Source of the DNA: Escherichia coli O157:H7
GTDB lineage: Bacteria > Pseudomonadota > Gammaproteobacteria > Enterobacterales > Enterobacteriaceae
Assembly (NCBI RefSeq): GCF_013167455.1
Contig: NZ_CP038328.1
DNA: 64,000 nucleotides
Direction: 5' to 3' (one strand)
Shown here: in pieces, positions 1,778 through 48,609 of the stretch
Position numbering within the stretch: position 1 is the first letter of the stretch
Layout of the letters: each line of letters opens with the position of its first letter
Made by a program: the position numbers and the translations under genes
Notes under the pieces: model-generated
Database searches by the model: none
What the model was told of the DNA's origin: nothing
Seen by the model: only the letters and a program-made list of their open reading frames with translations

Positions 1778-4207
1778 ATGACATTAACAAGACGTGAATT
1801 TATTAAACACAGCGGTATTGCCGCTGGAGCGCTGGTGGTGACATCGGCAGCACCGCTACCCGCATGGGCAGAAGAGAAGGGCGGTAAAATCCTCACCGCG
1901 GGACGTTGGGGAGCGATGAACGTAGAAGTGAAGGACGGCAAGATTGTTTCTTCGACAGGCGCGCTGGCGAAAACCATACCGAACTCCTTACAGTCTACGG
2001 CGGCGGATCAGGTACACACCACGGCGCGTATTCAGCATCCGATGGTGAGAAAAAGCTATCTCGACAATCCACTGCAACCGGCGAAAGGTCGTGGCGAAGA
2101 TACCTATGTACAGGTGAGCTGGGAACAGGCATTAAAACTGATTCATGAGCAACATGAGCGTATTCGTAAAGCTAACGGACCATCGGCCATTTTTGCCGGA
2201 TCTTACGGCTGGCGCTCTTCTGGCGTGTTGCATAAAGCGCAAACCTTACTGCAACGTTATATGAACCTGGCGGGCGGTTATTCCGGGCATAGCGGCGATT
2301 ATTCAACCGGGGCAGCACAGGTGATCATGCCGCATGTGGTCGGTTCTGTAGAGGTGTATGAACAGCAGACCTCCTGGCCGCTGATTCTGGAAAACAGCCA
2401 GGTTGTGGTGCTGTGGGGAATGAACCCGCTGAATACCTTAAAAATTGCCTGGAGCAGTACCGATGAGCAAGGGCTGGAATACTTCCATCAGCTGAAAAAA
2501 TCTGGCAAACCAGTGATTGCCATTGATCCTATCCGCTCTGAAACCATCGAGTTCTTTGGCTATAATGCCACCTGGATCGCGCCGAATATGGGCACCGACG
2601 TGGCACTGATGTTAGGGATTGCGCATACCCTGATGACACAAGGCAAACACGATAAAGTGTTCCTTGAAAAATACACCACCGGGTATCCGCAGTTTGAAGA
2701 GTATCTGACAGGTAAGAGCGATAATACTCCGAAGAGCGCGGCCTGGACGGCGGAAATTACTGGCGTACCGGAAGCGCAGATAGTCAAACTCGCTGAACTG
2801 ATGGCGGCGAATCGCACAATGCTGATGGCAGGCTGGGGAATTCAGCGCCAGCAATATGGTGAACAGAAACACTGGATGCTGGTGACGCTGGCGGCGATGT
2901 TAGGGCAGATTGGTACACCGGGCGGCGGTTTTGGTTTCTCTTATCATTACTCCAACGGTGGCAACCCGACGCGTGTTGGCGGCGTGCTGCCGGAAATGTC
3001 TGCGGCGATTGCCGGACAGGCCAGCGAGGCCGCTGATGATGGCGGAATGACGGCGATTCCTGTTGCCCGTATCGTCGATGCGCTGGAAAATCCTGGCGGC
3101 AAATATCAGCATAACGGTAAAGAACAAACGTATCCGAATATCAAAATGATCTGGTGGGCGGGTGGCGGTAACTTTACCCATCACCAGGATACTAATCGTC
3201 TGATCAAAGCATGGCAGAAACCGGAGATGATCGTCGTTTCTGAATGCTACTGGACCGCAGCTGCTAAACATGCAGATATCGTATTACCGATCACCACATC
3301 GTTTGAGCGCAATGACTTGACGATGACCGGTGATTACAGCAACCAGCATATTGTACCGATGAAGCAGGCTGTCGCTCCGCAATTTGAAGCGCGAAACGAT
3401 TTTGACGTGTTTGCCGAACTTGCGGAATTACTGAAACCAGGCGGAAAAGAGATCTATACCGAAGGTAAAGATGAAATGGCGTGGCTGAAATTTTTCTATG
3501 ATGCCGCTCAGAAAGGTGCCCGTGCGCAACGCGTCACTATGCCAATGTTTAATGCCTTCTGGCAGCAAAATAAACTGATCGAAATGCGCCGCAGCGAGAA
3601 GAACGAACAGTACGTTCGTTATGGTGATTTCCGCGCCGATCCGGTGAAAAATGCGCTGGGTACGCCAAGCGGCAAAATTGAGATTTACTCCAAAACGCTG
3701 GAAAAATTTGGCTATAAGGATTGCCCGGCACACCCAACCTGGCTTGCGCCTGATGAGTGGAAAGGTACCGCCGACGAGAAGCAGTTACAGCTTCTGACCG
3801 CACATCCGGCACACCGTTTACACAGTCAGCTTAACTATGCGCAACTGCGTAAAAAATATGCGGTTGCCGATCGTGAACCAATCACTATTCACACCGAAGA
3901 TGCTGCTCGCTTTGGTATTGCGAATGGCGATCTGGTCCGTGTCTGGAACAAACGTGGTCAGATTTTGACAGGCGCTGTGGTGACTGACGGGATCAAAAAA
4001 GGCGTGGTATGCGTGCATGAAGGTGCATGGCCAGATCTGGAAAATGGCTTGTGTAAAAACGGCAGTGCGAACGTGTTAACGGCGGATATCCCCAGCTCGC
4101 AGCTGGCAAATGCCTGTGCCGGTAACTCTGCGCTGGTGTATATCGAAAAATATACGGGTAACGCACCGAAGTTAACGGCGTTTGATCAGCCAGCTGTTCA
4201 GGCATAA
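1778..4207 (+). CDS. torZ: Trimethylamine N-oxide / S-oxide reductase TorZ (BisZ), molybdopterin enzyme with Tat signal
   Basis: Twin-arginine motif TRREFIK at the N-terminus; about 809 aa from ATG at 1778 (ORF track starts 18 nt earlier at 1760); 7-nt gap after torY. Confidence 0.9.
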
Positions 4208-12534: not shown

Positions 12535-12741
12535 GTTGTCATTCCATTGAAATAGATACGAATATACGTAATAGCATAAAAAATTTATTTTTTCAGGAGG
12601 CGCAATGTATATTTTTATTACGCATTTCTTCACTGAATATGTAATATTAAAATATTTACTTCCAATATAACCTGTAGAATAAATTATACTGTGCCATTTT
12701 TCAGTTCATCGAGACACCTCGCAAGTTTTTTTCATCCTTCG

Positions 12742-12757
12742 CTGGATATCTATCCAG
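12742..12757 (+). promoter_or_regulatory. LexA (SOS) box upstream of ruvAB
   Basis: CTGGATATCTATCCAG, palindromic CTG-N10-CAG, 52 nt upstream of the ruvA start. Confidence 0.75.
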
Positions 12758-12808
12758 CATTTTTTTATCATACAGCATTATCTTTGATTCATTACGCAGG
12801 AGCGTCAT

Positions 12809-13420
12809 GTGATAGGCAGACTCAGAGGCATCATCATTGAAAAACAACCCCCGCTGGTGTTAATTGAAGTGGGCGGCGTAGGCTATGAAGTGCATATGCC
12901 GATGACCTGTTTTTATGAACTCCCTGAAGCGGGTCAGGAAGCGATCGTTTTCACCCACTTTGTGGTGCGTGAAGACGCGCAACTGCTGTACGGTTTTAAC
13001 AATAAACAAGAGCGCACGTTGTTCAAAGAGTTGATCAAAACCAACGGCGTCGGCCCGAAGTTGGCGCTGGCGATCCTCTCCGGAATGTCAGCGCAGCAGT
13101 TCGTTAATGCCGTTGAGCGTGAAGAAGTGGGGGCACTGGTGAAACTGCCGGGTATTGGCAAAAAAACCGCCGAACGCTTGATTGTTGAAATGAAAGACCG
13201 ATTTAAAGGTTTGCATGGCGATCTCTTTACGCCAGCCGCCGACCTGGTACTCACGTCTCCTGCCAGCCCGGCGACCGACGATGCTGAACAAGAAGCGGTT
13301 GCCGCGCTGGTGGCGCTGGGCTATAAACCACAAGAAGCAAGCCGCATGGTGAGCAAAATCGCTCGCCCTGACGCCAGCAGTGAAACATTAATTCGCGAAG
13401 CCCTACGCGCCGCGTTATGA
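12809..13420 (+). CDS. ruvA: Holliday junction branch migration protein RuvA
   Basis: 203-aa ORF. Confidence 0.95.
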
Positions 13421-26824: not shown

Positions 26825-28003
26825 TTAACCCTGTACTTTTACCTGTCCGGCGGCGTGCTTCGCGCGTTCAATGGCGTCAACAACACTCTCTGCAGTAGCC
26901 AGTGCCACCCCCAGACGACGGCTGCCATCAATTTCCGGCTTACCAAATAAACGAATCTGCAAATCTGCGCCTACGGCATTCTGCACATTATCAAACGTGA
27001 CATTCTGACTGGTCAGTTGTGGCAGAATAACGGCAGAAGCTGCAGGACCATACTGACGGATCCCGCCAACCGGAAGTCCGAGGAAGGCACGTACATGCAG
27101 GGCAAACTCTGAGAGATCTTGAGAAATTAACGTCACCATCCCGGTATCATGTGGACGAGGGGAGACCTCACTGAAAATCACCTCATCACCACAGACAAAC
27201 AGCTCGACACCAAACAGACCATAACCGCCCAGTGCCAGCACCACTTTACGGGCAATCTCCTGCGCACGTTCAAGGGCAAGCGGGCTCATTTGCTGTGGTT
27301 GCCAGGATTCACAGTAGTCGCCATCTTCCTGGCGATGACCTACTGGTGCACAGAAATGGACGCCATCCACCGCGCTGACGGTTAGCAGGGTAATTTCGAA
27401 GTCAAACTTAACGACGCCTTCAACAATTACGCGGCCCGCTCCGGCGCGACCGCCTTGCTGAGCGTATTCCCATGCCTGAGCAAGTTGCTCTGCAGAGCGA
27501 ATAAACGTCTGCCCCTTGCCGGAAGAGCTCATCACCGGTTTTACAATGCAGGGATAGCCAATGGCGGCAACCGCCTCGCGGAAAAGGCTTTCGCTATCGG
27601 CAAAACGATAAGTGGAAGTGGGCAGCTGCAGCTCTTCTGCCGCCAGGCGACGGATACCCTCGCGATTCATCGTTAATTTCGTTGCGCGAGCGCAGGGGAC
27701 AACATTCAGTCCTTCCTCTTCAAGTTGGATCAGCATATCGGTGGCAATAGCTTCGATCTCCGGCACGATATAATGTGGTTTTTCCAGTTCAACCACACGG
27801 CGTAATGCATCACCATCAAGCATATTAATGACATGGGAGCGATGCGCGACATGCATGGCTGGTGCGTCGGCATAGCGATCGACGGCAATCACCTCTACGC
27901 CGAGACGCTGACACTCGATTGCCACTTCTTTACCCAGTTCACCGGAGCCTAATAACATCACGCGAGTTGCTGCCGGACGCAGCGCAGTGCCTAATAACGT
28001 CAT
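26825..28003 (-). CDS. purT: Formate-dependent phosphoribosylglycinamide formyltransferase PurT
   Basis: 392-aa ORF, ATP-grasp. Confidence 0.95.
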
Positions 28004-28040
28004 AACGAATATCCCCTGATTAATTCCGCGCGCAGTATAA

Positions 28041-28056
28041 ACGAAAACGTTTGCGT
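28041..28056. promoter_or_regulatory. PurR box upstream of purT
   Basis: acgaaaacgtttgcgt matches the PurR operator core (aaacgtttgcgt). Confidence 0.6.
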
Positions 28057-28101
28057 GTGTCTTTATTGCTGGTGTTGATCTCTCAACCGAAAAGAAATAT
28101 A

Positions 28102-28117
28102 CTGTATAGAATCACAG
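28102..28117 (+). promoter_or_regulatory. LexA (SOS) box upstream of yebG
   Basis: CTGTATAGAATCACAG = CTGT-N8-ACAG, 20 nt before the yebG start. Confidence 0.75.
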
Positions 28118-28136
28118 TTATTATGAGAGGCTGCAA

Positions 28137-28427
28137 ATGGCGGTTGAAGTTAAATACGTAGTCATTCGTGAGGGCGAAGAGAAAATGTCGTTTACCAGCA
28201 AAAAGGAAGCCGATGCTTATGACAAAATGCTTGATACGGCGGATCTGCTTGACACCTGGCTGACAAATTCTCCAGTGCAAATGGAAGACGAGCAACGTGA
28301 AGCCCTTTCGCTATGGCTGGCAGAACAAAAAGATGTGCTGAGCACCATTCTGAAAACCGGCAAATTACCGTCCCCACAGGTCGTCGGTGCTGAATCCGAA
28401 GAGGAAGATGCCTCACACGCGGCCTGA
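28137..28427 (+). CDS. yebG: DNA damage-inducible protein YebG
   Basis: 96-aa ORF. Confidence 0.85.
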   Translation: MAVEVKYVVIREGEEKMSFTSKKEADAYDKMLDTADLLDTWLTNSPVQMEDEQREALSLWLAEQKDVLSTILKTGKLPSPQVVGAESEEEDASHAA

Positions 28428-28445
28428 AGCAACTTGCGCTCCTGA

Positions 28446-28850
<405 letters not shown>

Positions 28851-38741: not shown

Positions 38742-41375
38742 TTATTTGGGAAGCGCAGTTCCCCATTCACGCCACTCTTTCGGTTCACTTTCCTGCAACA
38801 GGAAGTGCTTGCCTTCCTGGGCTTTCGGTGCCAGTGGCGTACCCGGAGGCGTGGCGAAGGCGATGCCGCCACGGATAAACTGGTTAAAGGTGCCGGTTTT
38901 CACTACGCCGCCCGTCAGACCAAAGTCCAGACTGTAACCCGATGCCAACCAGAAGACGGAATTGTTACGCACCAGGTGTTGATAGCGTTTACTGATGCGC
39001 ATCGCAATCATCACGCGATCTGACAATGTCCCCAGCGTCATTCCGGTAACCGTACCGACTTCCAGACCACGGAACAGCACAGGCGTACCGATGCCTAACG
39101 AACAGGCTTCCGGCGCTTCAACAATAATGCTTAAACCATCCAGGTAACGCGAATCAGTAATGGTGGCCTCTTGTAATTCAAAGTCGCGACGAGGATTGCC
39201 ACGGCCTGGTTCGACGTTGATATACGGCTGGAGGATAGTATCAAGATGCTCAACGCCAGCTGCCGAAATTTGCGGTGTGACCACTGAGAAGCGCGTACCA
39301 CCGCGAGCAAAGGTCTGGACATATTCCGGATAGAGCACCGCCTTTGCCTGTACTTCATTGCGCGCGGTAATCAGATCCAGCGTCTGGATTTGCCCGATAT
39401 CAATACCGAGATAGCGAATTGGCATCCCGACCGCCAGTTTTCCGGCATCGAAAGCATGAAGCGTAATCTGCCCGCCAACCGCACGGGCCGCTGTTTCGGA
39501 AGCATACAGAATACGCTTATCGCCTTTACGCTGACTGGCGCTGGCACCGCTGAGGTTATCGAAGCTAATGGCTCCCTTTAATGCTCTGGAGAGTGGGGAT
39601 GCCTGTACGGTCAGGCCACTACCATTCAGCTGAACTTTCGCCCCGCCTTCTGCCCAGAACACGCTATTGTTGGTCAGAAGGTTGCGATACTCCGGCTTAA
39701 TATGCAGATCGATATCAAACGCGTTAGCTCGCGGACGCACGGTAATAACTTCACCAACTTCAAATTTACGGTACAGCACTACCGATCCTGCCTGCACATC
39801 CGGCAGCGTCTCTGCACTCAAACTCACGGTTGTGGTGGGTAAATCGCTAAGGCTGTTCTCCAGCGCTTTTTCCAGATTGGCATACAGTGGATAGCTGGCT
39901 TTCATCTCACCTTTATCGCCCGGCAGAATACGTATCCCGCCATTGATCCATTCTGAGGCGCTGGCACCGAGAAACTCAACGCCATCCAGCCCCACCTTCA
40001 CATCGACACGGCTGTTGACGACAAATTTGCTATCGCCTTTTACCAGTTCGCGATGCTGAGGCTCAATGGCGACGGTAAAGGTAACGCCTTTGCTGGTGAG
40101 TTTACGATCAATAACCTGGCCTACCTGCACGCCGTGAAGAATGAGCGGCTGACCAGCATCAATACCGTAACTTTCCGGTGCTGTCAGGGTCAGTGTCAGA
40201 ACATCAGGTTCATGCAGCAGTGCTTTTTCGCCTGGCACAACAACGAACTCTTTGCGTGGCTCGCCATCGCCAGGCACCAACTCAAAGGTTTTTCCGGTCA
40301 GCAGGGCGCTGAGATTGGCATCGCTAAGGGATAATTTCGGGTTGCGTAATTCGATGCGGGTATTTTCCCGTAACAGCGTAACGACGCTGGGATCAACGGT
40401 CATTTCTCCGGTGACTTTACCACCAGGATTTAAATCCAGTTTAGTCAGCTGTCCGACTTCCAGCCCCTGATACATTAACGGCGTCGAGTCGGCGGTTAAT
40501 CCGGCCCCACTCGGCAGTTCCAGTTTTATTATTACGCCACGCTGGCTGTGGGCCAGATCTTCATACAGACCAAAGGTATCTTCCGCCTCGGCAGGTTTCG
40601 ACTCTTCTGGTGAATCGAAGGCAATCGCACCGTTAACCAGTGCCGCCAGACTTTCCAGTTTCACCTTCGCGCCACTGATACTGACGTTGGCATCAACGCC
40701 TGAAACGTTCCAGAAACGGCTACCTTTTTTCACCAGGTCGGTAAAACGCCGCTCGATCAGGACATCAATCACCACGCCTTGTTTATTGGGATTGATGGCA
40801 TAGTCGTAGACTTTTCCCACCGGGATCTTGCGGAAATAGACCAATGAACCGCTGTTCAGCGAACCGAGATCGGGAGCTTGCAGGTGGATCATCAGATCGC
40901 CGTTATCCAGCCGATACTTCGGTTGGGTATCGAGCGCGACAAAGTGATCCTGCTCTTTACCTTTACCTGGCATCATGCCGATATAGTTACCACCGACGAG
41001 GGCGTCCAGCCCGGAGACACCTGCCAACGATGCTTTTGGCGTCACCAGCCAGAACTGAGTCTCTTCGCGCAGCGCATCTTTCATATCGGACTTGATGCTG
41101 ACCTTGACTTCAATCTTACGAAGATCGTCGCTGAGGCTGATATCCTGCACTGTTCCGACTTCAACGCCCTGATAACGAACAGGCGTACGGCCCGGGACAA
41201 TACCATCCGCCGACATAAAGTCGATGGTGACGGTATTACCCCGGTCCTGATAACTGTCCCAAATCAGCCAACCGGCAATCATTAGCGCGATGAACGGCAG
41301 CAGCCAGAAAGGTGAGATACGGCGTTTATTTTTAATCTGCGCTTCAGTCGTCGAAGCGGGCGTTTCCTGACTCAT
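38742..41375 (-). CDS. letB: Lipophilic envelope-spanning tunnel protein LetB (YebT), multi-MCE-domain
   Basis: 877 aa from the internal ATG ([10 protein letters not shown]); N-terminal TM helix then repeated MCE-like modules. Confidence 0.85.
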
Positions 41376-47238: not shown

Positions 47239-48609
47239 TGCCCTGGATCTTGGCTGAGTGATACGTAACCCACTGATACAGGCAGCAATCACTGCCAGAA
47301 TAGCCGCAGCCATCAGCGAGACGTGTGTACCATTATCTCCAAACTGATTTAGCATCAGCGCCACCAGCGCCGCGCCGCTACTCTGACCCAGTAGACGAGC
47401 CGTTCCTAACATGCCACTGGCTCCACCGCTACGTTCGCGAGGCGCGGAGGTAATAATGGTGTGGTTATTGGGTGACTGGAACAAGCCAAATCCAGCGCCA
47501 CATAAGATCATCGGCCAGATAATATTGATATCCGCAGGTGACGCGGGCAGCAGAACCAGGGAAAAAAGCCCCGCAGCCATGATGAATAATCCTAAAGCAC
47601 CCAGCAATCCTGCATGTACGCGTTCAATCAAATAGCCTGCCAACGGAGCCATCACCATCGTTGCTAACGGCCACGGTGTCAGAAGTAAACCTGTTTCGAC
47701 TTCACTACGCCCGAGCACGGTTTGCAGGTAAAAGGGCAGGGAAACCATTGCCAGCATTTGTGCGCAGAAAGAGCAAACAGATGTGCAAATAGAAAGTGAA
47801 AACAGCGGGATACGCAGTAAATCCACCGGTAGCAGCGGTACTGGAAGAGAAAGCTGGCGGCGAATAAAGAAAATACCAACGACAACCATTACAACCAGTT
47901 CCGCAGCAATTAACGTCAGCGATTGCCCCTGAGCGAAACCACTCAACGCAGTGATAAGCAGGCCGAAGGTTAACGCGTTCATCACGGCGCTGGGCAGGTC
48001 GAAACGGGGTTTACTGGCGCGAGAACCATTGGGTGGCAGAAAACGCATCGCCAGAAGCAGGGCGATAATACCCAACGGTACGTTGATTAAAAATAACCAT
48101 TTCCAGGATGCGATGGAGAGGATTGCTGCAGCAATTGTCGGCCCGGCAGCAGAAGAGACGGCAACAATAAACGAGTTTATGCCCATCCCTCTACCCAGAA
48201 AACGTTGTGGATAGATCAGGCGGATAAGGGCGGTATTAACGCTCATCAACGCTGCACCGCCGAAACCTTGTATGACACGCGCAAGGGTGAGTATTTGCAG
48301 CGAATCAGAAAGGGCGCAGAACAGTGAAGACAACAGAAAAACGACCAGACCGCATTTATAAATACGTCGATAGCCAAACATATCACCCAGAAACGAAAAC
48401 GAGAGCAGGGAGATGACAATGGCGATTTGATAGGCGTTCACTACCCAGATGGAACTGGCTGGCGTGGCATGAAGGTCCGTGGCGATTGTTGGCAGGGCGA
48501 CGTTGGCGATTGCGCCGTCAAGGACAGCCATCGAAATACCAATCACAATGGTTAATATCGCACCGTATCGCTGGGGCAATGGCAGGCCGTCGGCCTGAAC
48601 TTTTGGCAT
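47236..48609 (-). CDS. yebQ: MFS transporter YebQ
   Basis: 457 aa from the internal ATG (MPKVQADGLP); 14-TM-type MFS. Confidence 0.85.
   Translation of the reverse strand: MPKVQADGLPLPQRYGAILTIVIGISMAVLDGAIANVALPTIATDLHATPASSIWVVNAYQIAIVISLLSFSFLGDMFGYRRIYKCGLVVFLLSSLFCALSDSLQILTLARVIQGFGGAALMSVNTALIRLIYPQRFLGRGMGINSFIVAVSSAAGPTIAAAILSIASWKWLFLINVPLGIIALLLAMRFLPPNGSRASKPRFDLPSAVMNALTFGLLITALSGFAQGQSLTLIAAELVVMVVVGIFFIRRQLSLPVPLLPVDLLRIPLFSLSICTSVCSFCAQMLAMVSLPFYLQTVLGRSEVETGLLLTPWPLATMVMAPLAGYLIERVHAGLLGALGLFIMAAGLFSLVLLPASPADINIIWPMILCGAGFGLFQSPNNHTIITSAPRERSGGASGMLGTARLLGQSSGAALVALMLNQFGDNGTHVSLMAAAILAVIAACISGLRITQPRSRA

Follow-up and report, generated by a model that had tools for sequence, protein, structure and literature searches.

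The 133 nucleotides between purT and yebG of Escherichia coli O157:H7 (28004..28136) form the whole of a divergent intergenic region in the window, the 64-kb (64,000-nt) stretch of DNA analysed here. The start codon of purT, on the minus strand, ends at 28003 and the ATG of yebG lies at 28137; between these two start codons the first-pass annotation, made from the letters alone, had seen two regulons packed back to back, a description that our analysis upholds. Several O157:H7 chromosomes match the segment 27500..28900 at 100% identity, and in them the RefSeq annotation lists purT, yebG and yebF; the translated yebG reading frame matches the Pfam family PF07130 YebG (E=4e-34), so that both gene names stand as originally given. 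The genes and regulatory features of the region are as follows:

26825..28003, minus strand: purT coding sequence, formate-dependent GAR transformylase, 392 aa (open reading frame and RefSeq annotation; K-12 b1849)
28013..28017, minus strand: predicted purT Shine-Dalgarno AGGGG (from the sequence; CCCCT block conserved in the alignment)
28034..28039, minus strand: purT promoter -10 hexamer TATACT (promoter scan; near-invariant block across 59 species)
28041..28056, no strand: PurR operator ACGAAAACGTTTGCGT (PWM rank 1; takes up 16 bp of the 18-bp spacer between the purT hexamers)
28058..28063, minus strand: purT promoter -35 hexamer AAGACA (promoter scan; TGTCTT block conserved)
28064..28074, no strand: 11-bp gap between the -35 hexamers (variable and insertion-tolerant; all larger insertions align here)
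28075..28080, plus strand: yebG promoter -35 hexamer TTGATC (promoter scan; TTGATT in K-12; TTGA conserved in most genera)
28098..28103, plus strand: yebG promoter -10 hexamer TATACT (promoter scan; ATATACTG near-invariant)
28100..28119, no strand: LexA (SOS) box, 20-mer TACTGTATAGAATCACAGTT (PWM rank 2; 16-mer core CTGTATAGAATCACAG at 28102..28117)
28125..28130, plus strand: predicted yebG Shine-Dalgarno GAGAGG (from the sequence; GAGGCTGC block conserved)
28137..28427, plus strand: yebG coding sequence, DNA damage-inducible protein YebG, 96 aa (open reading frame and RefSeq annotation)

Searching 27500..28600 against Rfam at E<=1 returned zero RNA families, with nothing to indicate that the spacer holds a riboswitch or small RNA, and no terminator-like sites were found in 27800..28500.

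Operator scores against the window background

Bare core patterns occur at chance level in a sequence of this length, a PurR palindrome with up to three mismatches being expected 0.54 times per 64-kb window and the pattern CTGT-N8-ACAG 0.8 times in the shuffled 64-kb window. A search with the idealised 20-mer LexA consensus, allowing three mismatches at most, had no match in the window and thus missed the yebG box, which carries five mismatches to it. For these reasons we used PWMs derived from published sites instead: a symmetric PurR matrix from the 27 ChIP-chip motifs of Cho et al. 2011 (PMC3159470), with purT excluded, and a symmetric LexA matrix from the 17 boxes of Table 4 in PMC3009722, with yebG excluded. 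Chance scores were obtained from 200 dinucleotide shuffles of the entire window.

With these matrices both operators stand well above background, at exactly the coordinates at which the first-pass annotation had placed a PurR-like operator near purT (28041..28056) and a LexA box near yebG (28102..28117). The PurR box ranks first in the window at 23.8 bits, followed by a match of 12.9 bits; its score was reached in 1 of the 200 shuffles and exceeds all leave-one-out scores of the 27 training sites. It is a 16-bp imperfect palindrome that fits ACGNAAACGTTTGCNT with a central CG and agrees with ACGCAAACGTTTGCGT at 15 of 16 positions. The LexA box, at 19.8 bits, ranks second in the window behind the ruvA box, with the next unrelated match at 11.7 bits; 1 of the 200 shuffles reached this score, which falls within the 3.5-28.1 bits spanned by true sites when each is left out in turn. 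The box has an exact CTGT-N8-ACAG with an AT-rich spacer, the consensus for the type being TACTG(TA)5CAGTA. Weaker PurR-like matches at 47913 and 37886, and LexA-like matches at 40422 and 29183, score below the mean maximum of the shuffled windows and were set aside as noise.

The top LexA match in the window, the ruvAB box CGCTGGATATCTATCCAGCA (12740..12759, 21.2 bits), served as a positive control, being a member of the training set and identical to the published sequence. An open reading frame of 203 aa (12809..13420) begins about 50 nt downstream of it and is followed by one of 336 aa, sizes that fit RuvA and RuvB.

Promoter architecture of the divergent pair

A promoter scan of 27800..28500 returned exactly two sigma-70-like promoters: AAGACA-18-TATACT for purT (minus strand, 28063..28034) and TTGATC-17-TATACT for yebG (plus strand, 28075..28103). 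Both have their counterpart in the RpoD-holoenzyme SELEX of Shimada et al. 2014 (PMC3946193), which lists TTGATT-17-TATACT and AAGACA-18-TATACT for the K-12 yebG/purT spacer. The -35 hexamers are separated by 11 bp and the operator centres by 61 bp.

The PurR box thus sits within the core promoter of purT, a gene of purine/pyrimidine metabolism, and its binding and effect at this site are documented in K-12. Cho et al. 2011 (PMC3159470) give in their Table 1 a purT ChIP-chip motif, ACGAAAACGTTTGCGT, that is the same as the sequence in the window, with a PurR signal at purT of 2.00 with adenine versus 1.02, and report direct repression of purT. Belliveau et al. 2018 (PMC6003448) describe purT by Sort-Seq as a case of simple repression in which the repressor site falls between -35 and -10; DNA affinity chromatography enriched PurR, and the repressor feature vanishes in a purR deletion. 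In Y. pestis, deletion of purR raised purT expression about 16-fold (log2 ~4), the strongest derepression among the purine genes listed (PMC10673613). Compared with the K-12 purT promoter, the operator, -35, spacer and -10 are identical, and the entire purT side of the intergenic region matches.

On the opposite side, the LexA 20-mer shares 4 bp with the yebG -10 hexamer and spans the predicted transcription start. The K-12 box, TACTGTATAAAATCACAGTT, appears among the LexA boxes of UV-induced genes (PMC3009722), and Sort-Seq confirms both the LexA and the RNA polymerase sites of yebG as well as its induction by mitomycin C (Belliveau et al. 2018, PMC6003448). In K-12, AZT induces yebG 4.4-fold; the lexA dependence of the gene is 9.7-fold and its heterology index 6.3 (PMC11228462). 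Belliveau et al. (PMC6003448) place the yebG RNA polymerase site 9 bp downstream of the 1997 annotation (Lomba et al. 1997). In the window, a TTGCTG at 28066 lies exactly 9 bp upstream of the TTGATC at 28075; together with the conservation pattern and the SELEX listing, this offset suggests that the Sort-Seq site probably corresponds to TTGATC/TATACT. Taking TAGAAT (28107..28112, 9 bp downstream) as the Sort-Seq -10 appears less likely, since it has no acceptable -35 hexamer and since TTGATC/TATACT fits both the conserved TTGA and TATACT blocks and the SELEX-based listing.

Sequence variation within E. coli and conservation across species

The O157 and K-12 spacers differ at three positions:

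28072: O157 G, K-12 A; in the gap between the -35 hexamers
28080: O157 C, K-12 T; final base of the yebG -35 hexamer
28109: O157 G, K-12 A; in the AT-rich spacer of the LexA box

Relative to the K-12 yebG SOS promoter (Lomba et al. 1997; PMC3009722; PMC6003448), the position of the box, its CTGT and ACAG arms, the -10 and the distance to the ATG are all the same, and the O157 promoter differs at 28109, the one base by which its box departs from that of K-12, and at 28080, the end of the -35. The change at 28109 gives a LexA score of 19.8 bits in O157 versus 20.5 bits in K-12. The exact O157 41-mer around the box was found in 291 of 5424 matching complete E. coli genomes; in both the LexA box and the -35 hexamer of yebG the O157:H7 lineage carries a minority variant, a small addition to the known picture. 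The species is polymorphic in this box, and another E. coli representative, in our survey (L002), has a stronger one (TACTGTATAAAAATACAGTT, 26.4 bits). In Salmonella enterica, yebG has one LexA box, at a distance of 17 bp from its ATG, and its SOS induction is among the strongest (41-fold with nalidixic acid); a natural single-base change in the Salmonella box shifts the ON subpopulation and expression heterogeneity (PMC8072944). By analogy with Salmonella, the O157 variant might conceivably have a small quantitative effect, slightly altering basal yebG expression.

To place the region in a wider context, species-representative genomes with YebG were surveyed (80 loci, Escherichia to Yersinia). 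PurT lies divergently upstream of yebG in 79/80 loci. A PurR box adjoins purT in 79 of the 80 species, at 18.8-23.8 bits and 35-87 nt from the purT ATG, and a LexA box precedes yebG in equally many (79/80; 16.9-29.5 bits, 14-38 nt away). The compact arrangement is found in 59 loci of the Enterobacteriaceae and Erwiniaceae, with a spacer of 128-141 nt and a single exception of 261 nt; in these loci 35-43 nt separate the PurR box from the ATG of purT, and 14-19 nt separate the LexA box from that of yebG. Near-invariant blocks of the alignment coincide with both purT hexamers, the PurR box, the TTGA of yebG, and TATACTGTAT..ACAG, and both ribosome-binding sites are well conserved. Free variation is seen in the 11 bp that separate the -35 hexamers and in the spacer of the yebG promoter.

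Of the 59 compact loci, 54 have their operator centres 59-63 bp apart and four have them 69-73 bp apart; in Klebsiella spallanzanii the distance is 188 bp. In this species (locus L048, about 2300..2430) an insertion of ~127 bp falls exactly between the -35 hexamers; it contains the inverted repeat CTTACCCCGGTCACGTAC ... GTACGCTCCCGGGGATGCGC and, judged by the ERIC primer sequences, may be an ERIC-type intergenic repeat. The four loci at 69-73 bp, from Escherichia whittamii (L005) and from Superficieibacter and a relative (L025-L027), carry insertions of 8 to 12 bp in the gap, that of E. whittamii resembling a short tandem duplication, CTTGATTG.

Adjacency of purT and yebG is not kept wherever both genes and their operators exist: in 20 Yersiniaceae loci the dbpA RNA helicase gene, with Pfam DEAD, Helicase_C and DbpA domains, stands between them, and the start codons are 1.67-2.07 kb apart. 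An example is:

L078 1025..2407 (Yersinia pestis), same direction as yebG: dbpA

The other 19 such loci are L053, L055, L056, L058-L061, L065-L068, L071-L075, L077, L079 and L081. In these genomes the divergent partner of purT is dbpA, not yebG, and the LexA box is found in the short gap between dbpA and yebG. All 20 split loci have a PurR box of 20-24 bits beside purT and a LexA box of 18-29 bits located 16-38 nt upstream of yebG, and this retention indicates that each operator belongs to, and moves with, its own gene. Yersinia nurmii (L054) is the sole locus of the 80 without a PurT match within 2.5 kb upstream of yebG, and it is also the LexA exception of the survey: the left arm of its box has been lost (TCGCGGATATTAATACAGTT, 7.6 bits; 2440..2500), which suggests a rearrangement that broke the operator.

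Probable independent repression and the question of cross-talk

Taken together, these results very probably describe two independent simple-repression promoters placed back to back, each operator acting on its own promoter alone. Binding and regulation are taken from the literature; our own computation supplied the motifs and their scores, showed where they lie with respect to promoter-like hexamers, and traced their conservation. We infer occlusion as the physical mechanism, along with the exact transcription start sites in O157:H7, which are predicted at about 28027 for purT and about 28110 for yebG. With purT transcribed leftward and the PurR operator filling its promoter spacer, PurR carrying hypoxanthine or guanine would exclude RNA polymerase from the purT promoter when purines are abundant. 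Transcription of yebG proceeds rightward, and because the LexA box overlaps the -10 and predicted start, LexA would block initiation until DNA damage leads to its RecA-stimulated self-cleavage, upon which the block on yebG would be lifted. Divergent promoters arranged back to back with separate regulators are common in bacteria, and some divergent pairs, such as bioA/bioB with BirA, share one operator. Unlike bioA/bioB, the purT/yebG pair has no shared operator, each repressor site lying inside its own core promoter.

The first-pass annotation had also raised possible cross-talk between purine repression and the SOS response, and this part of it finds no support. Under such a scheme PurR occupancy would affect yebG, or LexA occupancy or SOS-induced yebG transcription would affect purT, with competition for upstream DNA, DNA bending and supercoiling coupling as possible routes. 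We consider it very unlikely. A mere 11 bp separates the -35 hexamers, which might favour such an interaction, but each operator is clear of the core elements of the other promoter: the PurR box ends (28056) 19 bp upstream of the start of the yebG -35 hexamer (28075), the LexA box begins (28100) 37 bp upstream of the end of the purT -35 hexamer (28063), and neither box overlaps core elements of both promoters. Sort-Seq with three 60-bp windows per reporter across the spacer found regulation on each gene's own side alone, in the 60-bp window of its own promoter; that work (Belliveau et al. 2018, PMC6003448) speaks of "directional regulatory features" and brings together all the sites of the spacer in a single figure panel. 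The gene yebG is absent from the main text of the PurR regulon study (Cho 2011, PMC3159470), and purT from that of the UV tiling-array study (PMC3009722).

The constancy of operator spacing, 59-63 bp in 54 of the 59 compact loci of Enterobacteriaceae and Erwiniaceae, could likewise be read in favour of cross-talk. However, this narrow range is explained by the fact that almost all bases outside the 11-bp gap are promoter element or operator; insertions of 8-12 bp and of ~127 bp are tolerated between the promoters, and the Yersiniaceae retain both operators with the genes 1.7-2.1 kb apart. A further point on the side of cross-talk is that the published reporters are plasmid-borne and that purT under SOS induction does not feature in the available Sort-Seq text (PMC6003448). 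Weak coupling of both promoters on the chromosome, which the spacing of about six helical turns could reflect, would escape plasmid reporters under non-inducing conditions; SOS derepression of yebG, for example, might affect initiation at purT if it altered local supercoiling or brought the promoters into competition for upstream DNA. We give this version, too, very little credence.

That one or both motifs are functionless chance matches can be dismissed as next to impossible: the bare core patterns are indeed expected about 0.5-0.8 times per 64 kb and the LexA box departs from its idealised 20-mer at five positions, but the PWM scores lie far above the window background, both motifs fall exactly on promoter elements, 79/80 species retain them while flanking spacer bases vary, and the published evidence of direct binding and regulation (ChIP-chip, Sort-Seq, expression) refutes it. 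That two sites scoring so high should both fall on promoter elements within a single 133-nt spacer is no coincidence.

The region is already known in full through PurR ChIP-chip (Cho 2011), SELEX-defined promoters (Shimada 2014) and Sort-Seq (Belliveau 2018), for which it served as a validation case, and its significance beyond annotation is accordingly small. It provides a clean case of two independent simple-repression promoters held in a short spacer, to which the present survey makes the small addition that, where dbpA splits the pair in Yersiniaceae, each operator accompanies its own gene.
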